Origin: Chiloscyllium plagiosum
Taxonomy: Eukaryota
Length of the DNA stretch: 64,000 bases
Direction: 5' to 3'
NCBI RefSeq assembly: GCF_004010195.1
Contig: NC_057724.1
Coordinates: 44,140,624-44,204,623, forward strand
Shown here: in pieces, positions 13,520 through 64,000 of the stretch
Layout of the letters: each line of letters starts with the position of its first letter
Position numbering within the stretch: position 1 is the first letter of the stretch
Position numbers and translations under genes: made by a program
The notes under the pieces: model-generated
What the model was told of the DNA's origin: nothing
Database searches by the model: none
Seen by the model: only the letters and a program-made list of their open reading frames with translations

Positions 13520-14400
13520 TACTTGGACAACTGCCAGTGCTGGAAATCAGAAACAAAAACCCAAGGACTGTTCCATCTGGGACACTTTCGTCCACTCCTC
13601 CTTCACTCCTAACAACCCTAGCCCCCACAGCCCCATGGCACCGCAGAAGGTGTAACACTTGCCCATTTACGTCCTCCCTCCTCAGCATTCAAAGGCCTAG
13701 ACACACCTTCCAGGTGAAGCAGCGCTTTACCTGCACTTCACTCAATCTAGTCTATTACATTTGCTGTTCACCATGTGATCTCCTCTACAATTGGGAAACA
13801 AAGCCTAGATTTGGTGACCCCTTCTCAGAATACCTACGTTCTGTCCACAAAAAAGACCCTGAGCTTCCAGTTGCCTGTTACTGGAACACATCACCCTGTT
13901 CCCTGGCCAACATCTCTGTCTCAGGCTTGCTGCAGTGTTCCAGTACAAGCTAGAAGAACAGCACCTCATTTTCCACTTGGGAACTCTACAACATTCTGCA
14001 CTCAATATCGAGATTAACAATTGAGGCACCTTCTCCCATATCTTTATTCCAATCCCCACACACCAGGCCTTGTTATCACATGGTCTGCTTTCATTCAAAA
14101 TCCATTGTTAGCCACTAATAGTCCCCATTTGTAGCTATTCATTCTGCAGACTGACCATTATCCACTCTTTTGTCTGTTTGACTGTTCTCTCTCTTTGGGC
14201 TCTATTTCCACCCATCATTTACTCCTTACCTCCCCCTCGTCTCTCCCCGCTACCACCCTATCCTCTGCTTAAAAACAGATGTTTTCCTAGCTACCATCAG
14301 TTCTGAGGAATTGTCACTGGACCCAAAACATTAACTCTGATTTCTTTCCACAAGCGCTACCAGACCTGCTGAACTTTGCTGGGAAATTCAATTTTTAGTA
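13520..14400 (+). mobile_element. Penelope-like element 3' portion: Cys-rich linker, GIY-YIG endonuclease relic and terminal repeat with a decayed hammerhead
   Basis: ORF 13498-13953 contains RCNTCPF...FTCTSLNLVYYICCSPCDLLYNWETKPRFGDPFSEYLRSV (degenerate VY..YIGET..R..EH); ttctgaggaa...gacccaaaacattaac at ~14300-14335. Confidence 0.85.
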
Positions 14401-15084
14401 CTTACAGATGAAGATGGATTGACACATAGCAGTGATAACCAAAGGTAAAGACAGACAGATAAAAGAGAGATGGTCAGAAAGTGAGAAGGTCAAAGATGAA
14501 GACAAAAGGAACAAGAAAGACCTGGTTTCAAATGCGGGAATTTGAATATTTTAATAATTCCCTTGCACAGTCAAGGTCCACAAATTTCATGCTGCTTGCA
14601 TGTAACTCAATGTTAAATCTGCTGCTGATGGCTATTCAACTATAATTTCATGTGCATGCTGGAGTGACAAGAGTTAAAACAAGGCTGCACTGCTTAACGG
14701 AGAGGTGTTTTCTAACTGCAGTGCAGTAAGTGGTGAAACTATCACCAAAGGGTCTCTAAAAAGAGCAAAGAGTAAATGGGTTAGGCCAAAGAGGGACTGC
14801 TGGATTCTCCAATGAAGCCCAGAAGGTTCAGGCAAACATTGTGAAGGGGATGGAAGTAACTGGTCACAGCTTAATTCGAGGAATGTAGCCCCGTGGACCT
14901 GGATACAGATCTGAAAGAAGCTTAATGGCCTCACTGGAACGGTGAAAGCCAGTGATTACAACCTATACCCTACACACCCTGACACCAACCTCACGCATTA
15001 CACATTGTACCATAGCCGTGCCATACACAGTCAGTGATCTTTAACTATCAAGACATTGTTAGAAGGAACAGATATATAGTCTAC

Positions 15085-15897
15085 ATCTTAAATGGTAAGA
15101 GGTTAGGAAGTGTAAATGAACAAAAGGATCTGGATGTCCAAGCCAATGGAGGTGCATGTGCAGCAAGCTATTGCAGCATGTTAGTCTTTATAGCAAAAGG
15201 ATGAGGGTACAGGAGTAGTGAAGCCTTGCTTCAAGTACATAGAAGCCAATAGATGTGAAGCTGGAAGAACACAGCAGGTCAGACAGCATCTGACCAACAG
15301 GAAAGTCAACATTTTGAGCCGAAACACTTTGTCACATAGAACCTTGGCTAGACTGCACTTTGGGTACTGGGTGCAGGTTTGGACTTCTTATCTCAGGTAA
15401 GAAATTATTGCCATAGAGGAGAGCAATGAAGGTTCATCAGATCTGTTTTGGAGAATGGCAAGTCTGTCCAATGAAAAGTGATTGGGCAAACTGGGCCTGT
15501 ATTCCCTAGAGGTTCAAAGAATAAGAAGGTAACTCATTGAAACTTACAAAATACATAAAGGGATAGACAGGGTAGATGGAGGGACAATGCTTCCCCTTGT
15601 TTTGGAGTCTAAACTGGGAAATTAACTTTAAAAAGGGGAAAGCAATAGGAGACGAGGATGAAAAGTTTTTTTTTATTATTCAGAGGGTTGTGAATCTTTC
15701 AAATTCTCTATTCAGAGAAGCCTGAGTTATGAAGTATGTTGAAAATGGAGACTGACAGATTCCTACTAATCAAAGTCTGAAAAGAATCTGAGGATAGTTT
15801 GGGAAAATGTATGAAACTGGATGATCAGCTATGATCATGTTGAATGGCACAGTAAGTCTGATGGGCTGAATGGCCTACTTATACTCTCATGTTCCTG
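15085..15897 (+). mobile_element. Old CR1 3' region containing a nested PLE-derived insert
   Basis: CR1 RT C-terminal and 3'UTR similarity to other copies in the window. Confidence 0.75.
15245..15333 (-). mobile_element. Short PLE-terminus-derived insert with decayed hammerhead; 8-bp TSD
   Basis: ACATAGAA at 15237-15244 and 15334-15341; the interior matches the reverse complement of 21460-21535. Confidence 0.7.
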
Positions 15898-15974
15898 CTT
15901 TCAGCTGAGGTGAGATACTCACAAATCCACAATGGCTGCCCTCCAACACAAATCTTCCTCCCTTGTGTCAAGGA

Positions 15975-16460
15975 GGCTGACAGCACGGAAACAGACACTT
16001 TGGTCCAACTTGTCAATGCCTCCAAGTTTCCCGAACTAATTCCCTTTTGCCTGCACTTGGCCAAAATCCTTCTAAATGTTTCCAACTCATGTACCTGTCC
16101 AATGTGTCTTTTAAATTTGTAACTGTACCTGCATCCACCCCTTCTTCTGGTGGTTCATTCCATGTATGAACCACCCTCTGTGTGATAAAGTTGCCCTTCA
16201 GGTCCCTTATAAATCTTTCTCCTTTGACCTTATTAATAAGCCGCCTAGCTTTGCACTCAACTACCCTAGGGAAAAGACCTTTGCTATTCACCTTCTCGAT
16301 GTTCTTTGTGATTTTATAAACCTCTATAAGGTCACCCATCATCCTTGTACGCTCCAATGAGAAAAGTCCCAGCCTCTTCATGTAACTCAAACCCTCCAGC
16401 CCCAGCAACGTCCTTGTACATCTCCTCTGGGAACCAGATCCAATTTAATAATATCCTTTA
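15975..16460 (-). mobile_element. CR1 3' fragment
   Basis: ORF 16013-16408 (LGLFSLERTRMMGDLIEVYKI, TQRVVHTWNEPPEE). Confidence 0.85.
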
Positions 16461-17234
16461 TATTTATCAGAAAACAGTTATTTCCAGCACTGAATCTTGG
16501 AGAACCTTAGAATCACCAGTCTCCAGTCCAAGAAACAACCATTTCCAAACTCTCTATTTTCTGTCCTTAAGCAAATGTCATATCCAATCTGGCATCACAG
16601 TCTGTTCTCCATTGTATCCAATACTTGAATCTGTTGACTTTGCTCTTGGGAACTAGATGGGAGATTCAGGACATTATGACCTGAGCCTTTTCCAGTCCTC
16701 TGGCACCTGCTCTGTATCCAGTCAAGATCAGAGCTTCATGGGCAGCTGTTTCATTTTCTCCACCTTCATTTCCTTTTACAACTTGGAAGGCAACTGATCC
16801 AGATGATGCCATTATCTAGCCTGGGCATAACCAGCCAATTCAGTATATGCTACTTCCACCTCATTCATTTCTTCTACCATCTGCAGTATTTCTGATTTGA
16901 AGAATTCACCTGTACTGCATGATGGTTTCTTTTATGGTTTCATTACATTCTGTACCTCCTTCACCACCTTAGCTTTGGTGTTCTTACCAAATTCCTCTTC
17001 AATTCAGTTTAATAAAGAGTTGTCTCTTCATTCTGAGGCTGTATCCTCGGGTCCTAGAACCTCCTACTCATGGAAACATCTTCTCCATGTCCATTCTATT
17101 CAGGCTACTGAGTATTCTGTAAGGCCTACAATGTATGAAAAAGAAAACTGGAGATAAAAGCTTAAAAGCATTTATGAGAACTCCAAGATATCTACACTCT
17201 TCAATGCTGAGGATACCAGTCAATAACGAAAGAA

Positions 17235-17335
17235 ACTACAGAAATTGCTGGAGAAACTCAGCAGGTCTGGCAGCATCTGTGGAGGGAGAAACAGACTAAC
17301 GTTTCAAAGTCCAGTATGACTCGTTTTCAGATCTT
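17235..17335 (-). mobile_element. PLE terminal-repeat fragment with decayed hammerhead
   Basis: Minus strand CTGAAAAC-GAGTC-ATACTG-GACTT-TGAAACGTT; homologous to 14300-14390. Confidence 0.7.
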
Positions 17336-17446
17336 CACGGAGTTATATGTCTCAATTCTACAGCGGTTTTTTTAGACTTCTCTTAGTATTTTCAATCCAC
17401 TATGATGCTATTTCCTTTGCTTGAAATATCCAACACTTACACTTTT

Positions 17447-17880
17447 TTTTTTAATTCATTCAGAGGATATGGGCTTTGTTGGCTGGGCCAACATTTATTG
17501 CCAGTTTCTAATTGCCCTTGAGAAGGTAGTGGTGAGCTTCCTTCTTGAACCATGCAATCCTCATGCTGTAGGTTGACTCACAATGCCCTTGGGGAGGATT
17601 TTTAGGATTTTGACCCAATGACAGTGAAGGAACAATGATGTATTTAAAGTCAGGATAGGGAGTTGCTTGAAGGAGAACTTGCAGGTGGTGGTATTCACAT
17701 GTATCTGCTGCCCTTGTCTTCCTAAATGATCGTGACTGTGGGTTTGGAACATGTCGTCTAGTAGGGCTTGGGTGAGTTACGGCAGTGCATCATCTAAATA
17801 GTCTACACTGCTGCTACTGTATGTCAGTGGTAGAGGGAGTCAATGTTTGTGGCAGTGGTGCCAATCTAGTGGGCTACCTG
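17447..17880 (-). mobile_element. Old LINE 3' end (second family; similar copies near 5640-5770 and 59795-60490)
   Basis: Shared motif attcat...ggc.gggcca.catttattgcc...taattgcccttgagaagg and a poly(A)-like end; clade not assigned. Confidence 0.6.
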
Positions 17881-18484
17881 ATGTGCAGTACAAATTAAAC
17901 TTGCCACTTGTCAGCTCAGGGCTAGATATTGCCTAGGTTATTATGAGCTATTATGAGTAATTCATTGTCAAACATATCTGGAAAGATACAGCAAAAAATG
18001 TTTTGTCACCACAATCCAGCACCATTTTGAGTTACAAAAAGAATTTAAGAAGTTATGTAAATTCAGTTCATCTTCTGTATAAGGCTTCTTCAAACACAGC
18101 TCCAGGCTTCTACAAGGTTTCTGCAAGGTGTCCCAGGCTTCAGGCCTACTGCAGCCAGGAGTCCCTTCTCCAGGCACAGCCCTCGGGCACAGCAATCCAC
18201 TGCTTCCTCCACGTTCATCAGCTGAGGGAGGATGAAGCAGGAAGGTTTCATTGATCATTGTTTCATCTGGTGCCATGAGGCTTTCTTAGATATGGATTCA
18301 ATATTGAGGACTCCCAAGGCAACTCTCTCCTGACTGTATAACCATTGTTTCATCACTCTGCTGGACCTGTCCTACTGATGGGATGGGAAATACCCGAGAA
18401 TGGTGATGGGAGTGTCTGAGAAATTTTAGATAAAGTATTATTGTCTGTAAAGTGAGAATGACTATGTCATAAACAAAACATATG

Positions 18485-19315
18485 CAGCCTCTCCCTATAG
18501 CTCAAACCCTCCAGCCCTGGCAACATCCTTGTAAATCTTTTCTCAACCCTTTCAAGTTTCACAACATCCTTCCAATAGGAAGGAGACCAGAATTGAACAC
18601 ACTATTCTTAAAGTAGCCTAACCAATTTTCTGTACAGTCGCAACATGACCTCCCAACTCCTATACTCAATGCACTGACCTATAAAGGTAAGCACACCAAA
18701 CACCTTCTGACTATTCTGTCGAACTGCGACTCTTAAAGTACTATGAACCTGCACTCCAAGTTCTTTGTTCAACACTCCACAGCACTTTACCATTAAGTGT
18801 ATGTGTCCTTCCCCGATTTGCCTTTCCAAAATGCAACCCCTCACATTTTTCTAAATTAAACTAACACTCAGTGCCAACTAACACTCCTCTGCCCATCAGC
18901 CCACCTGATCACGATCTCATTGTATTCTGAGGTAATCTTCCATCAATCTTAGTGTCATCTAAGAACTTACTAACTATACCTCCTATGTCTACATCCAAAT
19001 TACTTATATAAATGATGAAAAGCAGTGGACCCAGCACTGATCCCTGTGGCATACTACAGGTCAAAGGCCTCCTGTCTGAAAAGCAACCTTCCACCATCAC
19101 CCTCTGTCCCCACCTTCATGCCAGTTCTGTATTCAAGTGGCTACTTCTCCTTGTATTCCATGTGATCTAACCTTGCTAACCAGTCTACCATGTGGAACCT
19201 TGTCAAACACCTTACTGAAGTTTATATAGAACACAATCCTCTTTGTTACTTTTCAAAGCTATATTGACTATCCCTAATCAGTCCTTGCCTTTCCAATTAC
19301 GTGTAATTCCTGTCA
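18485..19315 (-). mobile_element. CR1 RT fragment
   Basis: ORF 18909-19100 (PQGSVLGPLLFIIYI, KFLDDTKI) and ORF 18608-18844. Confidence 0.88.
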
Positions 19316-20321
19316 CTTGTGGAAAGAAAGCGAAGTTAGCCCTTCAGATTCAGGGACTCTTCTTCAGAAAATAACTATGTTATTTTGTTCTACAGTGTGA
19401 TGCTGCAGTGGGAGATTAGAGACAGACCTGCCTGTTCCCATCCTCTAACGATGAAATCTTGGAGATCTCCAATGACTGCAATTTCTTCTTTTTGCTGCTC
19501 CTTCAAGTGCAATCTCTTGCCTATTGGTGCCATGGTGTGGGTTACACTTATTTGAGATGTCACCACTCACAACAGTCTCCAATGCTGACTATCTTGAGTT
19601 ACACACTCTATGAAAATGCTTGTAACTCCTGCCTTTCTAGATAATCTGGATGGCCATCCAAGTGCCATCCTGACTACTTTGTGGAAAGTACAATCCAGGA
19701 AAGTGTTACTCTCCCTGAGGCACGGCTTCAGCTATCACTTTAGCACAGAAGTCTGAGCTCAAATTCGAATGGTTAAAGATACTTCCGACACAAATGACCA
19801 CCCAAAACACGTGGAATGTCCTGAAGTTTCACAAGCAGCAGAAATTGCAAACAGCAAGTCTCAGATGCCTGACCATGAACTAAAAATAAGGTCCATTTCC
19901 TCTTTTAGAAACTAATTAGTATTTTGCTTAAAATATTTTAATTAATGCTTCTGGACCTGATCTGTGCTATTGCTCTTTTAATTCATTTACCTCATGCTGA
20001 ATGAGATGTTTAATTTTCTGTCTTGTATTTTGACTAGAGAAATGTTCATCAACCACTCAGTTAACTGTAATCCAGTGTTGAGACACTGATCTTTTTTCCT
20101 CGAACATGGTCCGTCTGCTTAGTGACCCGAGTGCTTTGTACCTCCTCCCATTTCTACTACAGCTAATGAATAAAAGTAGAAAAGCGATGACAGAAAGTGT
20201 CTTTGGAAGCCGTTTCACACAATCCACAGATGGTTTTCATCCTCAGGTATTCATTAAGATTTTCATTAATGAAAATAGCTTCAAAGATTAGGAACGTAAA
20301 ATAGCGTGACCTCAAAAGCTA

Positions 20322-20526
20322 TGATTTGGAGATGCTGGTGTTGGACTGGGGTGTACAAAGTTAAAAATCACACAACACCAGGATATAGTCCAACAGGTTT
20401 AATTGGAAGCACACTAGCTTTCAGAGCGTCGCTCCTTCATCACCTGATGAAGAAGTGAAGCTCTGAAAGCTAGTGTGCTTCCAATTAAACCTGTTGAACT
20501 ATTACCCTGTTTTGTTTGATTTTTAA
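20322..20526. mobile_element. Palindromic PLE-derived miniature insertion with 11-bp TSD
   Basis: CTCAAAAGCTA at 20311-20321 and 20527-20537; inverted arms ~20360-20527 centred at 20443/20444. Confidence 0.85.
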
Positions 20527-21453
20527 CTCAAAAGCTAAGCAGCTTAAAACTTTCATCCAGTTGCTGGGTGCAGCTGCCATGGTTCACACCAGGTGGCAGC
20601 AGAGATCCACTCCTGTTCTTTCCAACAGGCTCAGGCTATAGCCTACATGGCAGATGGTAATCACGTTGTCCATCTTTTTTTTAGCTAAGTCTGAGTTGTG
20701 TTGAGCTTTTTCGAGGAATTCCCAGTACAAGACCTAACAAGCTTTTTGACCATACATTACCAAACTTGCTGTTAGCTGTTTTATCTAACTACTCTGCCGT
20801 TATGATGTCTGTCACTTCTAATTCTGACCCCATTACACCTTCTGCCAATCCAAGATCAACTCACTACTTGACAGTTATCCAGCGAAAGACTGGCATCCCT
20901 TGCACTGGCACCACCTTTGAAAGGCTGCTGTGCACCCTGACGAGTATTGTCCCACACCAGCAACATGATTGCACACCAGCCACAAAGCCACATTAGTCAC
21001 AACATATTCATGGCAAAGGCTGGCACTGTTTCACAAATACTCATCTCCCATTCTCTCAGCTTAGTCACAGTGTAACCACCAGCCACTCTACACTCTACCT
21101 GTCCATAGGTACATTCTGTTTGAACACCCTCTAAGTCAGCAGAACCCTATCCCCACTGTAGACCCTCGTATGGAGTATGGAGACATCACACGCAGGCATG
21201 TAATCGGACAAATACAAAGGTGACTTTGTAATTACAGAAAGCACAAGTAATCGCAAAGAAAACCAATAGTTGCTGAGGTTCACCCTGACAAAGGAAACCA
21301 TATTTTGGCATCATGAACAACAAATATTTTACAGTCCATGATGGTCTATTGCACCCAGCTGTCATCTCTTGAAAGCAGGTGTCAGTGATATTCTGTCTGG
21401 CTTACAGTGCCTGACACACCCGACCTCTATCAGGGACAACTGTAGCTTCTTAC

Positions 21454-21496
21454 AGGTTCCTGATGAAGGGCTTTTGCCCGAAACGTCGATTGTCCT
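21454..21496 (+). ncRNA. Minimal type I hammerhead ribozyme motif (intact core)
   Basis: CTGATGA(21460-66)-A-GGGC-TTTT-GCCC-GAAA(21480-83)-CGTC; palindromic ACGT in place of stem III; predicted cleavage after GUC (21487). Activity untested. Confidence 0.75.
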
Positions 21497-21547
21497 GCCC
21501 TTCGGATGCTGCCTGACCTGCTGTGCTTTTCCAGCTCCACACTCTCG
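21454..21547 (+). mobile_element. 94-bp PLE-derived insertion carrying a minimal hammerhead; 15-bp TSD with one mismatch
   Basis: ACTGTAGCTTCTTAC (21439-21453) and ACTGTAGCTTCCTAC (21548-21562). Confidence 0.85.
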
Positions 21548-21842
21548 ACTGTAGCTTCCTACTAATGATCCTCATTGGTGATAACAAACCTGCAATCTGC
21601 ATCAGCCAGGAAGCTGCAAAATAGCACCATGAGCTATTGTCATCGTGGTCTTACGTCTCATTGGGTACAGCACTGAAAATTAAGCCCCATTATTCCTGGA
21701 GTTGTCACAAAAGTTCACAATTTTACCAAGTATTCAAAATTCTTCAATTTATCTGTCCTTTTAGACCAAAGTTAACAGAAAGCACAACAAGGTTTCTGTA
21801 CTTTATATGGGCTACTATTATTTTAAACAGAACACCAGAGAG

Positions 21843-22175
21843 ATGCTCCTTTATCAGGTGATTGTCATAAGTTGACAATAGATTTCCCCGCAGTGATAAT
21901 ATTGTCTACTGTGGTTCCAGGGCAGGCTTTGCTATTACTGGTAAGAATGCCAAGCTTCTCCAGTTTTTTGTCCTTGGCATGTATGTGGTGTAGTTTTGTT
22001 GCCTTGTCTGTTTGGCAATGTCACGTCATTGTACTGATGTACTGACAATCACCTGATGAAGGTGCGTCGCTCCGAAAGCTAGTGTGCTTCCAATTAACCC
22101 TGTTAGACTATAACCTGGTGTTGTGTGATTTTTAACTTTGTACACCCCAGTCCAACACCGGCATCTCCAAATCAT
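21843..22175. mobile_element. Rearranged PLE fragment: inverted partial terminal repeat, ORF-start piece and terminal repeat
   Basis: 21843-21866 is the reverse complement of ~22044-22068; the minus strand between them reads TAGKSIVNL (VNLS-like PLE N-terminus); 22050-22175 is homologous to the element at 20322-20526. Confidence 0.7.
22050..22084 (+). ncRNA. Minimal hammerhead ribozyme motif, second family
   Basis: CAC-CTGATGA(22053-59)-A-GGTGC-GTC-GCTCC-GAAA(22074-77)-GCTA-GTG; stem I CAC/GTG; palindromic AGCT; one stem II mismatch. Confidence 0.7.
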
Positions 22176-22399
22176 GCTTTCAATAAGTACACCAAATCCT
22201 TTTTTAATCATTTGCTTTTAAAACGATCCTTTCCCTGTTTCAGTCCATAATCAAAATACAGAAAAATAAGTAGACCTGATCTTTACAGTTGGTAAATCTT
22301 TTCCCCTGATAACAAGCTTTGTAACACACCTGGAGCCTCAAATATACCAGATGCTCAAAATTGCTCCTTGAGCCTCAAATACCCCTGCAGCCTGAGATG

Positions 22400-23140
22400 G
22401 AGCAGGTACACAAGTTGCTCCAGGATGTCGGAGTCAGGGCAGGTACCAGGTAGTGAGCCCATACCTCCTGGAAGTGTAATGGAACCCTTTCCTTTTGATG
22501 AATTCTGCAGCATTGTGATACAGTCCTCTCAGTGTCACGTGTGTGCAGTCAATGGCACCCCCCTGTACCTGGGGGAAGGTAGCTATATTTCTGAATGTGA
22601 CTGACCATCCTAACCTCTTCATAAGGAACACAATGAACCAGTGTGATTTTGCAGAATTAGCATTCGTCGCTGTCCTGATATATTTGTGGGTGCAAAACTG
22701 AGAGATGCCACACAGGTCACTCATCATGCCCTGGAAGGAGACAGTAGCATAAAATTTCAGTGCCACTGTGAACTTCACGGTGACCAGGAGAGGATGGCCT
22801 CCTGCTCCTGCCGCCCTCAGGTTCCACATCAGCATCCGATGTAGTTTGTCACAGTGTCCCAGGACAATTGGGGTTTGCATCAGCGCGGTAGTCAGTGCCA
22901 GAAAATACTGGGCGTCCTTCAGACCTCACACATCCTGAGGGACCGTGCAGCAGTGAAACCTCCCTGAGTTTGTTGCACCTCTTCCTCCCTGTCAGCCTGT
23001 TGCTGTTCCTGGGCTTCTCCCAGCCTTGGTCCTCCAGTATCTCTCTTTACCTTCTTAGGTAGCAGCCGCAATGACCAAATGCCACCCACGACCAGACCCA
23101 TGGCTTTCAGCGGAAATGTCCTAAAATGGAGCAGAAGAAA
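22400..23140 (-). mobile_element. PIF/Harbinger transposase relic
   Basis: ORF 22434-22880: VALKFYATVSFQ..SDLCGISQ ... FPQVQGGAIDCTHV ... FIKRKGFH (HARBI1-family GAIDCTH and NRKGFHS motifs); truncated before the remaining catalytic residues. Confidence 0.85.
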
Positions 23141-24569
23141 CACAAGAGTTTGGAGGTGAGAGTGGAGTACACTTCACCACACTGTGGGTCACAGGGATAC
23201 ATGCCACACCCTGAGGGACATGTCCCCATCATCCTTTCACATTCAGGCTCAGTCTGTGCAACAACTCAGTGAAGGTGTGACCCAGATCCGTACCACTCGG
23301 TGTCATGAAGAAGGGAGTACATGAAGCAATCCAAAACACTACCTACCCCAAACCTTGATCAAACACTCAGTCTCTCACTGCATTCACCACAGACCATTGT
23401 TACACTTACATGACAGATGAAGTGTAACAATGATCTGACACACACAGGATCCTTGGAAGTTGGACAAATAGTGGTTTCACTTCAACCAGTATTGGCCTTT
23501 TGTAATGTCACTGCTGCTCACTTCCACATTATTGAGATGCCAAAGTTTAATTTACAATTATGTTACAAATTGGCATGTTGCAAATCACCTTTGATCAGCA
23601 TCTGACGCCTGAGCACCCTCACACTGCTTGCATTGCAAATAGATGATGAAATGATTACACATGAAATATAGCTGGGGTTTGCAAACAGCTGCATGTATTT
23701 GTTGCTCCAATGTCTTTCCCCAGTCAAACTAACACTTACTCAACCCACCCTAGCATTGTTTCTAGTAACACTGCACATCTAGAGAACAGCAAGTGATGAC
23801 GGGGAACATATCTCATTGTGGACACCATCAGCACTGGCTTCTGCCTGATCACCAGGTACTCCATACCCCATGAGCCTCCATATCCTTTTTACCTTATACT
23901 AGCCTGACAGCCCATTTCAAACTATCCCCCTACCACATTGAACTTTGACTATGACTGTCCCCCCTGCACCCTGTGCACCTGCATTACACCATAATGAAGC
24001 CCATCCTGGTTCTCTGCTCCAACCCTATGGAAGTCACACTAGTGGCTATTGTCATTAACACCCCTCCACCCCTTCTATAGCCTACCAGGTTCTGCAGACC
24101 CTCCTCCCCCATATAAAGTTTCCTCCTATGACTGTCTTTACCCCCACCTTTATAAATGCCACTGCTTTCCACCTTCCCAGCCTTGACTTCCCCCATCCTT
24201 ATGAGCAACCCCCTCACAGAACACTCCTGAAAGATCAACAGAAGGACATCCAGGGCTATATGTTCTCCAGACCTTTGACCAACTAATGAGCAATCGTAGA
24301 CATAACTGACCACAGTGTATTCAGCTCTCTGCCTAACGATATACTATCTCTTAGGGAATGTGCTCTCCTTCAGGATTGATTGCTGAATGTCTCTCAGACT
24401 GCACTGACAGTGTGAGTATCCCAAATGAATAACTGACCTGCACTGTGTGCACACTATTCCTGTAATTCATGATGCCAGGCCCCCCTAACTGACAGCATCC
24501 CTCCTTTGACTGAATTGATGACTAGCCCTCATCAGTTTCTAACATTAGTATGGAATTAATATGCAATGT

Positions 24570-24942
24570 GGATTTCACCAATTTCCTAATTTCCCCTCCC
24601 CCCACCTTATCCCAGATCCAACCTTCCAGTTCAGCACTGCCCTCAAGACCTGTCCTACCTGACCATCTTCCTTCCCACCTAGCCGCTCCACCCTCCTCTC
24701 TGACCTATCACCCTTACCCCCACCTCCATCTATCTATTGCACTGTCAGCTACCTTGCCCCCAGCCCCAACCCCCTCCCACTTACCTCTCCATCTCCTCGG
24801 CTCACACCTCATTCCTGATGAAGGGCTTCTGCCAGAAACGTTGATTCTCCTTCTCCTCGGATGCTGTCTGATTTGCTGTGCTTTTCCAGCACCAAACGCT
24901 TGACTCTCATCTCAAGCAACTGCAGTCCTCACTTTTGCTTTA
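24570..24942 (+). mobile_element. PLE 3' end with pyrimidine-rich tract and hammerhead motif
   Basis: CTGATGA(24815-21)-A-GGGC-TTCT-GCCA-GAAA(24835-38)-CGTT; the downstream sequence matches 21488-21547. Confidence 0.8.
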
Positions 24943-32614: not shown

Positions 32615-32790
32615 ATACTAAACACCGAATACTTGACAAATTCAGCAGTTTTGGCTGCATCTGTGGAGAGAGAAACAGTTAAGGTTTCATGTCCAGTATG
32701 ATTTTGGTACCCTGCCAGAGCTTCTGGGTTTCTCGAGCATTCTCTGTCCATTTCAGAGTTCCAGCATCTGCAGTATTTTGTCTTTAATTG
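32615..32790. mobile_element. Old inverted PLE-terminus relic inside the putative 3'UTR
   Basis: gcatctgtggagagagaaacagttaaggtttc is similar to 17270-17305; followed by opposite-orientation ccagcatctgcagtattttg. Confidence 0.65.
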
Positions 32791-35911: not shown

Positions 35912-36026
35912 TCATTGCAGATGTAGACCTCGTGAGTTTGGTGGCAGGAAGGAATCCCGTATCCTCGCAACTTCTACTGCGCAGAGGTACCCAGAGACCT
36001 TGTTATACCATTCTGGAGTCCGACCC
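35912..36026 (-). CDS. STARD8: STARD8-like terminal coding exon
   Basis: Acceptor tatctgtcAG|G; GRTPEWYNKVSGYLCAVEVARIRDSFLPPNSRGLHLQ then TGA at 35912-35914. Confidence 0.9.
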
Positions 36027-36685: not shown

Positions 36686-37262
36686 GTAACATAACTCTCC
36701 CAATATAATATTCAGCTTGATTTGAAACATCTCTAATCGCTGTCACTGCTACTCCAAACAAGTGATTCTAAACGTTTGTGTAAAGGTGTACTTACTTGAA
36801 ATGAAAGGAATTAAACATTCCTATACCATGAAAAGGTCCATATCAAACTCCATCTTTGTAGAATACAATGTACTTTATGCAATACAATACAATACACAGA
36901 TCAAAACAGAAGCTGCTTGATTCAGCAGCTGACTGGAGTGGAATATTCATGAGAAGTGTTTGATGACCCATACCCAAGAAGAAAAATGATCTTAACAGGA
37001 GACAAATATCTCAGAATTTAATTCAAAATTAGACTTTGAGGTTTTTAGTTGATTACAATAGCTGTTAGAGACAGTGCATCTTTCACTCCATTTAGTACCC
37101 ATGAGAATTCTTGAAGCTTAACCAACTAATGCACTTGGATCTGCATGAAGGGTAACCCCAGTGCCTAAGAATGAGAGCCACCAGGACAGCTCTCTCTCGA
37201 TTGATGCTCACGTTCCTGCATAGTTTAATCTCAGAATGGAAGGAACAATGTGAAACACAAAC

Positions 37263-37439
37263 CTCAGGTCTGTCCTGGAGATGTATGTGAGTCTAGACCG
37301 GCCTGGGCCGCAAGCTTCAACCACGTACTGCGAGTTCAGGACTACTGCTCTCACACCACCTTCCAGGGGCACTGCATCATGCTCAACAGAAACTGCTACC
37401 AGAATGCATGCTTCTTTCAGTAATTCAGTCCGCCATGCC
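37263..37439 (-). CDS. STARD8: STARD8-like exon, START domain (absent from the ORF track)
   Basis: Read by hand. Acceptor ctgatgtAG|G, donor AG|GTTTG; 177 bp; AWRTELLKEACILVAVSVEHDAVPLEGGVRAVVLNSQYVVEACGPGRSRLTYISRTDL(R). Confidence 0.92.
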
Positions 37440-38164
37440 CTACATCAGAGATAAAACAAAAAGTACATTGTGACAGTGGATTGGACATTGCTATGCTAAC
37501 TATAAAAATTTGACACAAAGTAAAGGCACAAAAGTAAACTGTTGTCACTGATAGTAAAGACCACTCAAAGGAAGCTTGGTGCTTACTGAGAATGCACCAA
37601 CATGTTGCAATAAGTGGTAAAAATCATTGAATAACAAAGAACCGTGACACACCACACCTGAGTGAGTGTGGACTGAGTCAATGCCAATTGGAGTAGCTAT
37701 TAAGAAAATACACATTATAATTTGTTATTACATTAATCAAATCCAACAGGATTGGAATGTTTCTGAATATACAAGTATATTCACAATAGTTGCCAGGCAA
37801 TAAGTTTATGATGAATTAAATGAAATGGGAAGTATCCTAATTTGTTATGCCTTTAATTTGTAACTTAATCTTGATGGTACCAGTAGATAGCCATTGGTGG
37901 CACCAATAGTAAATAAGAGGTACATGGGGCAGATTTTCACACTTCTCCACTTGGTATACTAAATTATTTTTAAAGCCAGCCACAAAGACGTGCACGTTCA
38001 TAGAAAGAAGTCTGCCTAATATTCAAATCAGTAATTTTAGTGTGAGGATTTCAGAATAGATTTTTAAATGTGATGTGCCCAATCAAAATATACTTGGAGA
38101 GAAACAAAAATCTGTAGAATGGGCTTTTAAAGTAAGTATCAAATGTGTCTTTGATTGTCAAGAA

Positions 38165-46495: not shown

Positions 46496-47385
46496 CAATG
46501 CTGGACCACTTAAGTATTGACATTTCAAGATGATAGTGATTCAAGATTACAGTGATGTTGTAGAAACTTGCTGTATATTCCACTGAGTTTGCAAAGCTAA
46601 AGGGTAATGTGAACGACAAATTTTAAAATATCTAAAACAACCTTAGGACCATCACAAAAGTAGTGAAAATCAAGCAGAACAGTTGATAACTTGAATCCTA
46701 AGCAAAACCTGAAGCAGTTTAAACTTTTGTATATTTAATGAGGAAATGCATCTGACATTGTAAAGTAAAAGGCACATATAAAGTAACTTTATTCAAGACC
46801 ATTAAAAAAAAAATGCTTTTGATTGTTTATTTGAACTCCAAGTCTGCTGATCATGTAAATATTTTTGGCAGCTCTTTAGGAACACATCATAAATATGCTC
46901 ATGAAGATTGTTTCAAGTCACTTGATGCAGAAGATTCATACATGTGCTCAATGAGAAAATACTAAGCAGAGGAAATCGTTCACGTAGCATGCTTGGCCTT
47001 GTGCCTAAATCTAATTATTCTCATTCACAAAATAATAGCTGTACCCAAAGATGTGCAAATTACTCTCTGGCCATTGAACCCATTGTAAAATATTCATAAC
47101 CACAAAATAACTTATGAACATAAAACAATTTACTCTATTTCCTGATGTTGATCTTATGCTGAGAAAGAAACATCAAGCAGCATAACAACTTCAACATTTA
47201 ATGCAATTTTAATGTTTCATTAAAATTGTATTTAGTTATTTTACATATAATACTCAGGACAGGATTCTAGTGAGTAAAAGGTTTCTCAATGTGCCAATTA
47301 CAAGTATTAATGAATTACAATGCTACACTTTAGTTATGGACACATTTTCATGAAGGACTGATGCTGACCCAATAATCAGTCTTAC

Positions 47386-47603
47386 CTTAGAACAACAAAG
47401 TCTCGCCTGGGATGTGGCGCCATGCTATCGAGAACATAATGGCAGATCTCCTTATTTTTATCTAATTGTTCCACAACATTTACAACCAGCACATCATCAT
47501 CCCAAAGGTGGCGTTCTCTAAGCAGACGATTTAATACAGAATTAGGAGTTGCTTCTATCTCGGTTGTCACTTTCCATAAACGAAGGGGATGTCCATCACC
47601 AAC
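47386..47603 (-). CDS. STARD8: STARD8-like exon, START domain
   Basis: Acceptor gttggtAG|GTT, donor AG|GTAAG; 218 bp; VGDGHPLRLWKVTTEIEATPNSVLNRLLRERHLWDDD...HYVLDSMAPHPRRDFVVL(R). Confidence 0.93.
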
Positions 47604-59097: not shown

Positions 59098-59445
59098 TTT
59101 CATAATTTTACTCCTAGTCAGTTAACCTAGCATGACAGCTTGCTCTTTCATATTATTCAAGTCTGACGATAAACAATTGGCAAAACAAAAATCCCAAAAT
59201 CTGCCTCCCACTAATTTTTAACTCCAGTTTTTACCACTAGAAACGAAGGTAGAAATTTTAGTCCACACACGTTGCTAACTATTTCTCATTACTCTGATCC
59301 AGCTATTTGCCCAGAATGTTGAAGCCATCAGTGAAGCAGAAAAGTCTGCATCATCCCTCAAACACATCAAAGTCATTGGAATGCCCTTCTTCCTTCACTC
59401 CCAAAGAAATCCAATTGCATAGTAACTGGAAATTGCAAAGCTCAC

Positions 59446-59656
59446 CTTGGTGAGGAAGTTTCTTTTTTTGGCACATTTAGGTGGAATAGAGATGGAGCAA
59501 GGCAGACAGCCAGGTTTCCAGCAGTCATTTGGTTCTCTTGCACTGACGCAATGTCACTCAAGAAGTACAGTAGCGACTGAAGCACCTCACGATTCTCATC
59601 TGGCAACAGCACAATTGCAGCCTGAAGGGCTTGGAGGCGTTGGTCCTTTGGCACAT
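59446..59656 (-). CDS. STARD8: STARD8-like exon, RhoGAP domain
   Basis: Acceptor tatctcAG|ATGTG, donor AG|GTGAG; 211 bp, phase 1 to 2; (Y)VPKDQRLQALQAAIVLLPDENREVLQSLLYFLSDIASVQENQMTAGNLAVCLAPSLFHLNVPKKETSSP(R). LLYFLSDIAS and QMTAGNLAV are STARD8-like. Confidence 0.93.
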
Positions 59657-60789
59657 CTGAGATACACAAAGGAGGAGTCACACATTCTTGCTCATTTAAC
59701 ATTTTAAAAATTCTGAACAGAACTCCTACTGCAGTCTTAAGTGTAATAAAACGCACTAACTTCACATAAAAAAAAATTATGTCCATATTCTTTAATTTAT
59801 TCATGGATGAAGATGTCACTGGCAAGGCCAGAATTTATTATCCACCTACAATTGCTTATGAGATGCAACCAAATAGCTTGGCAGACAACATCAGAGAGTA
59901 GTTATGAGTCAACCACATTACTGTGAATCTGTAGTTACATACAGGCCAGATCAAATAGACAGACTTAGGAGGACGTTAGTGAACCAGTTATATTTTTACA
60001 GCAATCCATTAGCTTAGTGGTCAATCTAACTGATATTAGCTTTTTTTACATTTCAGATTTCTTTCATGTACTGAATTTAAATTCCCCAGTTGTCATGACT
60101 GGATTTGAATGCATGTCCCAGGGGCTAATGGTCCATTTATCTGGACTAGTAATCCAAAACTGCACTGTAGCAGCTTCCCAAGCTTCTCTGACAACATCTC
60201 CCAAACTCATGACCTCTACCATTTCAGTAAAAAGCCACAAACATGAGAACACCATGACCTCAAAGTTTCCCTATAGGTCTAACCTAGTTTGGAAATATTT
60301 CCATGTTTCTTCATTAACAATGGTTCAAACCTTGGAATTTGTGACCAAACAAATATCATTAAGAGTAACTTCATCACCCAAACCAGTAATTAAAAGATGG
60401 CATTGCCCCATCACCTTCAAGAGCAATGAGGAATCACAATAAATAGACATCCTGTCAGTGACACTGCATCACGTAAATGAATAAAATACTCAAGAAAATA
60501 ACTGCAACACATGCCATTAGCATAATTGTAAACATCACATTAAGCAGGAGATTGTGTTTAGTTCTTGAGAGTTACAGCACCTCAAAAACAAGTACTGTTC
60601 ATAGTGATGCGGTAACCTGTTGATGATCTAATCGGTAAACACTCATTGGGAGTGACAGTTTCTTGGTCTCACCATCAAAAACAGCTCAACCTCAGGGATC
60701 TGGACAGCAAAGCAAGTTAAGCACTGGAATTATGAAAAATTGCAAGACCATTCATGACTGTCAAGAATTTCAGTGTCGGTGAAGATCTT

Positions 60790-61080: not shown

Positions 61081-61491
61081 CAGCTCTGAGTTATGATAGC
61101 CAGCTGAACTGGCAGAATGGAATATTCTTGACCATGTGATCGTCATGAACGGAGTATCTCATTATACTGAATCATCGCAACACAGTTTCTAGTGAGCATG
61201 GTCTAATTGAAAAATTTGGCAGTAAATGAACATTTCTTTCATAAAGTAGCAAGTCCAAAATGGAAATCTCATTCTGGCACAAAAGGCACATTCTTGTTTC
61301 AAAGTAAAGGAAGCTTTACCCTGCAGCTTCCTGAATTATGCTCAGCATAAATATACTTACATTGACTCTTGGTAATCTAAATTAAACAGGATTTTATTCC
61401 TCAGCACCATAATATAAGTTGCTTACTGAGAATACATTACAATACATAACAAAGACAATGGGAAGATGTATATTTTTCCTATTTCACTCAC

Positions 61492-61690
61492 ATTGATAGA
61501 TCTGCAAAAAGGTTTCTGTCAGCTTGTTGGTGAAAATAGGCTCCGGAAGGTCCCGGAAATATTGCTTTAACATGTCTGCTACATCGAATGCTGACTGACC
61601 GTGGTAATTAACATTGTCAGGGCTGCTTTCACTCATTTGCCTCAGAGTTTGGATTCGGGATTTTACACCTGACTTCCTGAAGATGCCAAC
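61492..61690 (-). CDS. STARD8: STARD8/DLC3-like RhoGAP-START protein, internal exon (RhoGAP domain with arginine finger GIFRKSG); upstream exons lie beyond the window
   Basis: Acceptor ttctaaacAG|GTTGGC, donor T|GTGAGT; 199 bp; encodes VGIFRKSGVKSRIQTLRQMSESSPDNV...KQYFRDLPEPIFTNKLTETFLQIYQ. GIFR, SPDNV and KQYF resemble STARD8 more than STARD13 or DLC1 (recalled sequences). Confidence 0.93.
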
Positions 61691-62519
61691 CTGTTTAGAA
61701 GACAAAAAAATGTTTCTTTCCCATACATATATTTCTAATCATTGCTGAGTAGAAGATTTTTCAATTATATAACAATGGGCAACATTAATTTCATAAGAGT
61801 TAATGGACATCCAGTCATTACAATAGGAAGGGCATTCTGAAAGATTGCAAAGAACCTTGCATGCGAAATAAATTAGCCAGTAGTATATCAGAATCAAATG
61901 TCGCAATCTGTCACAGGGAATAAAAGGACACAACCTAAACCAAAGATTAGGGAGCTTAGCACTTTCATCCTCATCAGTGACTGCACCAGTCCAGGAGACA
62001 GCTGGAGGAAGCAGAGTTATTTTAAGCCCCGTATAAAAGGTGCAAGTAGCATTTGGGAAAAGTGAATTCTAAAAATAAGTACAGGAGATAATTAGCTTAC
62101 TCTATCTTAGCCACTTCTTTATTGGTTTAGCACTAGCTGTTCCTTTTTAAATTGTGATGGGAACATACCAGACAAATAAGATAAACCACAGCTAAAAGCA
62201 GGTACCTGAATAAATACAACATACCGATGCCCAGCCTCACTGTGTCAGGCCATTTCTGAGATTCTGCAGCTGCTTTAAGCAGTGAAACTACTAAATTCAA
62301 TACACTGCTCCATCTGATAGCAGATAATTGCCTGCTCTTTACGGAAAAGGCAAATTATTTCCGGCTGTTTCTTAAAGTAATTTCTCTCAGCTCCTCCTCT
62401 GGTCTTTGTAACTCACTCATTAGCTGGACTCTAAGATGCACATATCCAAATCTCAATCTGGATCATTCACTGCTCAGCCATTTGAAGATAAAAGAATTTA
62501 ACCTAATGAGGCCTTTACA

Positions 62520-63954: not shown

Positions 63955-64000
63955 ACAAAGTGAGGACTGCAGATGCTGAAGATCAGATCAGAGCCGAGAA
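63955..64000 (-). mobile_element. Start of another PLE terminal repeat, cut by the window edge
   Basis: caaagtgaggactgcagatgctgaagatc is the reverse complement of a sequence similar to 24905-24938. Confidence 0.6.

Follow-up and report, generated by a model that had tools for sequence, protein, structure and literature searches.

Three Penelope-like element families of the shark Chiloscyllium plagiosum with minimal hammerhead motifs in their end repeats

The stretch of DNA analysed here (the window) comprises 64,000 nucleotides of the Chiloscyllium plagiosum genome (contig NC_057724.1, positions 44,140,624 to 44,204,623; coordinates given below are those of the window). It very probably contains minimal type I hammerhead ribozyme motifs located in the end repeats of three families (A, B and C) of Penelope-like elements (PLEs), present as a group of eight truncated and likely inert insertions, and the RNA of the source elements likely begins just before one hammerhead and, in family A, ends just after the next one. 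The observations behind this reading are open reading frames (ORFs) for reverse transcriptase (RT) and GIY-YIG endonuclease (EN), the order pseudo-long terminal repeat (pLTR), ORF, pLTR in family A, two groups of 3' ends, fold-back copies, target-site duplications (TSDs), a pile of 5' ends and a poly(A) site. As elements these are new examples of a kind already known, the details added here being the poly(A) site and the position at which short copies start. The three families may already have names in Repbase or Dfam.

The strict motif was defined as CUGANGA, a paired helix II, GAAA and a 4-nt palindrome; offsets are counted from the core position C3, with the predicted cut at +28/+29. It is present four times in the 64 kb, always on the plus strand (20444, 21460, 22053 and 24815), the mean in 200 dinucleotide shuffles of the window being 0.08 and none of them reaching four. 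The bare loose core is not above chance in the window (12 occurrences versus 6.4 expected, with at least 12 in 7 of 100 shuffles). Family profiles made from genomic relatives and then run over the window gave 12 matches in the three families, ten of them within 14292-24935; the region from 14.3 to 24.9 kb holds four full-core motifs and six worn relatives. The palindrome is AGCU in family A and ACGU in families B and C, helix II having 4 bp in B and 5 bp in C. Every canonical position is kept, among the window copies, at 21460 only, and C11.1 and N17 are changed in the 24815 copy. The Rfam scan of the window yielded no match at gathering score and, at E<=10, no hammerhead model, only hairpin-driven microRNA (miRNA) matches on a fold-back together with weak chance matches.

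A first examination made from the letters alone (the sequence-only reading) had already listed these sites and ascribed them to at least three PLE-derived families. All of the sites are present, the profiles recovered three families, and the consensus core (CUGANGA / GAAA / UH, with palindromic 15.2-16.2) is the column majority in 87 A, 127 B and 47 C copies. The GGAGC/GCUCC stem that it described corresponds to the majority sequence of the family, from which the copies in the window deviate, with GAAGU/GCUCU at 20444 and GGUGC/GCUCC at 22053. Its decayed copies were located at 14302 on the plus strand and at 15334, 17330 and 19367 on the minus strand, but the core at 15334 is unrecognisable and this copy was assigned by its downstream flank.

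The helices covary between families, as the sequence-only reading had suspected, and this includes the pairs of helix I. In 34 motifs picked on core and palindrome only, helix I being outside the search criteria, Watson-Crick pairing is seen at the first helix I pair in 26 motifs and at the second in 30, with two and three pair types respectively, and in 1-9 of 34 when slid. These motifs are copies of about five families, so the counts represent few independent events, and no both-sided helix change was seen within a family. The variants shared within families concern N7 and loop II, with none in the core. Changes after insertion were counted in the core versus the flank for A (8/145 vs 37/617), B (28/759 vs 151/2635, a slightly lower core decay possibly due to base composition and ascertainment) and C (30/234 vs 63/545). 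Because paired helices are kept between families and the core decays about like the flank, the source elements appear to have kept the ribozyme and the stubs do not. Two more hammerhead families, absent from the window, were seen at loci L072, L087 and L090, with a helix II of 7 bp and an unpaired U after A9.

The connection with PLEs is given by the position of the motifs with respect to the coding frames. In families B and C motif copies lie 3' of broken RT and GIY-YIG frames; within the window, the 14302 copy is downstream of a GIY-YIG frame remnant and the 24815 copy downstream of the last ORF codons. Of 25 family A loci, 23 have the hammerhead 3' of the endonuclease frame and the two misses contain more than 1,100 N; pLTR-ORF-pLTR was found in three of six extended loci, with same-strand hammerheads 3.4-3.7 kb apart. 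Among the loci extended, a pLTR on both sides of the ORF has so far been seen in family A only. The N-terminus, RT and EN are continuous in L182, L183 and L185, and the ORF begins with an ATG at the end of the tail, about 90 nt beyond the predicted cut. Three of eight frames matched Pfam, with RVT_1 (A, 8e-5; B, 0.0017) and GIY-YIG (C, 1.8e-4), all of them below gathering cut-offs; in the Atlas the family A C-terminus scores 0.96 to HTH_animal/GIY-YIG clusters, and a PDB sequence search with the family A RT returned no relative. The family A protein is 23-43% identical to those of B and C, and a CX4CxxC linker is located between RT and EN in A, B (L031) and C (L051). Judged from sequence, the three families are EN+ PLEs with an RT-then-GIY-YIG frame. 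A CX2-5CxxC linker marks Neptune and Nematis in the parts consulted of PMC8557442; this motif, which cannot separate the two, points to the Neptune/Nematis clade. Besides, family A has a (CA)n-rich tract after the stop codon (L187:3930-4050, L014, L179), where many loci contain assembly gaps.

The abundance of these elements was estimated in a genome sample of 100 stretches of 10 kb, taken at round coordinates from contigs C1-C39 (968,819 bases). It contains 54 strict motifs, with 61, 26, 11 and 2 stretches holding 0, 1, 2 and 3 of them, versus 1-2 motifs per 578 kb in Markov controls, and 319 profile matches that cover 3.1% of the bases. Extrapolated from this sample to 3.56 Gb, the genome would contain about 200,000 strict motifs and about 1.2 million profile matches. 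ORF linkage and genome sample together uphold the proposal that minimal type I hammerheads are carried by several high-copy PLE families.

Short copies of 95-130 nt outnumber long ones. Once long copies of other subfamilies were removed (50 B copies shared upstream sequence with other copies; control 2/300), core-retaining copies that are short or fold-back and begin at about -13 to +3 from C3 numbered 27 of 36 in A, 74 of 124 in B and 31 of 37 in C, and a further 20 A, 52 B and 26 C copies begin inside the motif region, evenly spread. The pile lies 5' of helix I and has a sharp cliff upstream. In all three families an initiator-like A, found at -8 (A) or -4 (B, C), is preceded 30 nt upstream by a TATA-like box, at a distance that remains constant while the spacer differs between subfamilies; TATA and initiator consensus motifs were used for comparison. 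The 3' ends of family A form two groups about 35 nt apart, from +74 to +88 (13 of 23) and from +108 to +123 (10 of 23). An opposite-strand partner was found in 42 of 120 sampled events, a count in which the merging rule may join neighbouring events. TSDs of 10-15 bp flank four of eight window units, the other four having none or doubtful ones; of the sampled solo copies, 12 of 66 have a TSD. Two independent joints lead from inside the family A ORF to repeat position -8 (L187:3451 to 4434, and window 21867/21868), as expected from template jumps at the 5' end of an RNA. Fold-back insertions are also a large potential source of double-stranded RNA.

The excess of short copies could alternatively indicate self-propagating non-autonomous families, either SINE (short interspersed nuclear element)-like or non-LTR retrozymes, spreading via hammerhead-cut circular RNA. 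According to the parts consulted of a preprint (bioRxiv 10.64898/2026.07.22.740005), animal retrozymes derive from pLTRs and are present in one cartilaginous fish tested. This origin is nonetheless improbable for the copies studied here, which form no tandem array in the window, have separate TSDs, lie on both strands, avoid the predicted cut site with their 5' ends and, when short, are without the upstream box. Long, fold-back and solo copies share loop variants, so the separate non-autonomous derivatives put forward by the sequence-only reading are unnecessary.

The RNA's 3' end was observed in raw poly(A) single-cell reads (a 3'-end library from one sample, 12.96 million reads read), from a run labelled as the same species as the run that matches the unique flanks of the window. 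Family A reads are poly(A)-tailed after +57 and +60, that is 29-32 nt beyond the predicted cut, with 260+321 reads (581) in one search and 443+528 (971) among 5,776 placed reads. Sense reads number 978 and antisense reads 131. The tail is added 12-15 nt after AUUAAA/AAUAAA and before a GU-rich tract, one or other hexamer being present in 78 of 87 family A copies. The tailed reads span the predicted cut into upstream pLTR sequence and represent several haplotypes, and none of the six DNA-contig rows listed has a comparable tail. Given the position of the poly(A) site past the predicted cut, the RNA of family A elements likely has a ribozyme at both ends.

In the mechanism proposed here, transcription would start at -8 (A) or -4 (B, C) from the TATA-like box, and an RNA that extends from -8 of one repeat as far as +57/+60 of the following one would have the hammerhead as its terminal repeat. 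Reverse transcription would begin internally at the two tail boundaries, with extension of both target strands, as described for the Anolis element PAc (PMC11167929). Begun at about +85 or +122, it would run off the 5' end of the RNA and give copies of 95-130 nt, and longer copies would require that RT switch template to the repeated 3' end, or that read-through RNA be copied. The hammerheads at the two ends of a single RNA would pair via their palindromes and may cut with the help of protein. Once inserted, short copies would have neither promoter nor partner, and they decay about like their flanks.

A more specific proposal, put forward here as possible rather than probable, is a retrovirus-like U3-R-U5 layout. 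RNA would start at hammerhead helix I and be polyadenylated 30 nt past the next predicted cut; the R region of 65-70 nt would essentially be the ribozyme and the two R regions the partners of a dimer, and strong-stop complementary DNA, made from the tail sites, would either jump to the 3' R or insert, leaving about a million stubs (3% of the sampled DNA).

The main rival keeps the same elements and supposes that RT, while copying long read-through RNAs, stalls where the hammerhead is folded or bound by protein, the poly(A) site being used mainly by host transcripts. We regard it as conceivable but somewhat doubtful. If RT stalled, ends would be expected within the structure or 3' of it; the pile instead sits 5' of helix I with its cliff upstream, and all three families have the TATA-like box above the pile. 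PAc is transcribed as multi-copy RNAs, the unprocessed RNA being the main substrate (PMC11167929), which agrees with stalling on read-through RNA, as do the lack of a cap-derived G and an ORF coverage 50-500x below that of the 3' repeat; this low coverage is, however, what a 3'-end library would give. Regarding the cap, untemplated G at 5' junctions shows no excess (B 25/96 vs 27.6% expected; A 7/23; C 1/22), a comparison confounded by subfamily differences, so a transcription start site is not shown by these junctions.

That lack of excess is one of several results that count against the explanation favoured here. Only 5 of 186 B copies have their 5' end at the predicted cut site, about background, which gives no evidence of cleavage, and no pile of read ends occurs at that site in the poly(A) library, which cannot show dimer cleavage. 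No copy folds as a monomer better than its shuffles (z -1.5 to +0.7); in two-strand folding the palindrome dimer is not the best structure, the helix being too short for this to carry much weight. No poly(A) tail was found for B or C among the matches listed, the poly(A) site comes from one sample, whose second run gave 0 reads, and the tailed reads could stem from transcripts of the host that use the signal. A search for full-length copies of B and C, not an exhaustive one, found none. Finally, there is local clumping, with eight events in 10.65 kb (Poisson P 0.0016) and 0 of 60 stretches above five events.

The PLE-derived units of the window are as follows.

13540-13558, minus strand: probable inverted end of a family C insertion, recognised by eye only; its reverse complement resembles the family C 3' end in L187.
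13562-14397, plus strand: 5'-truncated family C PLE with a broken frame for linker and GIY-YIG up to about 14022, 3' untranslated region (UTR) and decayed hammerhead (C3 14302).
15244-15340, minus strand: short and old copy, family B-like, whose core is lost; candidate TSD of 10 bp at 15237/15334.
17222-17334, minus strand: family C-type short copy, G8 lost, palindrome retained.
19314-19369, minus strand: family C-type fragment, first core half retained, GAAA lost.
20321-20448, minus strand: tail-bearing arm of a family A fold-back, hammerhead (20443) without C3 at the fold centre; 13-bp TSD at 20309/20525.
20439-20528, plus strand: tail-less arm of the same fold-back, hammerhead C3 20444, helix II damaged.
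21457-21553, plus strand: short family B copy without tail, its hammerhead canonical throughout, with C3 at 21460 and the cut predicted after 21487; 15-bp TSD at 21439/21548.
21836-21867, minus strand: inverted 30-nt family A hammerhead head, beginning 8 nt 5' of C3.
21868-22043, minus strand: part of the N-terminus of the family A ORF, inverted and connected to both hammerhead heads; DNA identity of 88-92% to eight family A loci, protein identity of 73%.
22045-22176, plus strand: tailed pLTR end of family A, with C3 at 22053 and the cut predicted after 22081.
24564-24939, plus strand: 5'-truncated family B PLE with last ORF codons, 3' UTR, hammerhead (C3 24815) and tail; 15-bp TSD at 24556/24940.
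32622-32715, minus strand: decayed family C-type copy, outside the cluster.
63957-63987, minus strand: family B tail fragment at the window edge.

The segment 21836-22176 is a single rearranged family A insertion, with two hammerhead heads that both start at -8 and an inverted ORF piece between them. In its unit at 22045-22176 the poly(A) hexamer position (22093-22098) is mutated, the family poly(A) sites fall at 22110/22113 and the ORF ATG is at 22170. The motifs at 21460 and 24815, 3,355 bp apart, were considered as the two repeats of one element, which is ruled out by their separate TSDs and by the lack of a B frame between them. The fold-back at 20321-20528 gives a hairpin of 84 bp, which matches models of plant miRNA precursors with scores under their cut-offs. 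In the family C unit, a pyrimidine tract, CAG and ATG at 14336-14358, just 3' of the predicted cut, resemble a splice acceptor before a start codon. Between the PLE ends there are high-copy repeats (15340-15900, 15967-16430 and 18477-19200), which we take to be remnants of CR1-type long interspersed nuclear elements, and about 38% of the window matches the genomic loci retrieved. From 36 to 64 kb the window has almost no PLE ends and corresponds to the body of a minus-strand gene with RhoGAP and START domains (exons at 35900-61738, last coding exon near 36,000; Pfam matches at 61487-61738, 59445-59834, 47385-47603 and 37211-37444), presumably DLC/STARD13-like.

Concerning the 11-kb cluster, it is most improbable that it represents a selected functional ribozyme array, such as a terminator zone downstream of the RhoGAP-START gene. 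Eight of the ten window insertions do fall within 10.65 kb (scan P about 0.0007), in a zone 11-22 kb beyond the stop codon of this gene; however, just one of ten copies is canonical and it is antisense to the gene, no copy has a full core on the gene strand, and in the sampled copies core decay is close to flank decay. Several hundred 10-kb tiles of equal density are expected by chance in the genome. A special character of the cluster is not supported either, since the window has four strict motifs versus 3.6 expected from the genome sample. The cluster does not form a unit, its eight insertions being unlike one another in strand, family and age, and the local grouping carries no meaning by itself. 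PLEs tend to insert near other PLEs, according to the parts consulted of PMC6765202.

Several of these features are known from other systems; except for Frangieh et al. 2024 (PMC11167929), the comparisons that follow refer to parts of the papers cited. Cervera and De la Pena (2014, PMC4209133) described minimal hammerheads in metazoan pLTRs, with solo copies numbering thousands per genome, pairs on opposite strands, dimer dependence and a weak cleavage by dimers. The motifs reported here share with them the core, the extra base between 9 and 10.1, G10.1-C11.1 and the palindromic 15.2-16.2, as well as the presence of several families per genome, mainly as solo copies of truncated PLEs, and of close opposite-strand pairs; in contrast, the helices are shorter here (I of 2-4 bp, II of 4-5 bp). 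The extrapolated figure of about 200,000 compares with about 9,000 in Xenopus and about 4,000 in coelacanth (PMC4209133), the descriptors being different, and cartilaginous fish are absent from the main-text portions of that paper. EN+ PLEs of the Neptune and Nematis groups (Craig et al. 2021, PMC8557442; Arkhipova et al. 2013, PMC3846280) have the same single RT-GIY-YIG frame and CX4CxxC linker, partial tandems, an inverted 5' copy, a 30-40-bp tail, TSDs, and TATA plus initiator-like pLTR motifs, the latter noted in a rotifer pLTR (PMC3846280), whereas those portions mention no poly(A) site close behind the hammerhead.

In PAc, a Poseidon element from Anolis (PMC11167929), the PLE tail has been traced to two internal RT start sites. 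PAc and family A both have two 3' ends that define the tail and a hammerhead near the start of the ORF, and in neither case does an RNA-seq read end at the cut site; cleavage of PAc needed protein. On the other hand, the hammerhead of PAc contains the ORF start, and reverse transcription begins 111-118 nt into this ORF, whereas the family A ATG is at the tail end. Non-LTR retrozymes (bioRxiv 10.64898/2026.07.22.740005) are likewise pLTR-derived, non-coding, hammerhead-bearing short repeats, but they are head-to-tail tandems and the copies described here are dispersed single or head-to-head insertions. The Clec2 3' UTR hammerhead (PMC6765202) also has its cut site between the coding sequence and the poly(A) signal, so that cutting would remove the tail; it is split-type, host-owned and shown to work, unlike the predicted ribozyme of a transposon studied here. 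Penelope elements are listed for the whale shark (PMC8455134). In our literature searches no paper was found on shark PLE hammerheads, PLE poly(A) sites or PLE strong-stop products, the supplements of PMC4209133 and of bioRxiv 10.64898/2026.07.22.740005, outside this scope, being places that may list shark motifs; the parts consulted of PMC6155905, PMC2377424 and PMC4350176 contain nothing on sharks or poly(A) sites.

If the U3-R-U5 proposal is true, this genome would be among the most hammerhead-rich described, and family A stubs would also seed poly(A) signals with a built-in tail-removing ribozyme. The transposition route of PLEs and the role of their hammerheads are standing questions (PMC8557442, in part; PMC11167929). 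About a million datable end-pieces record RT starts, stops and jumps, and family A has mapped RNA 3' ends beside the ribozyme, which together make the terminal-repeat model, and the question of a dimer between the two ends of one RNA, directly testable.

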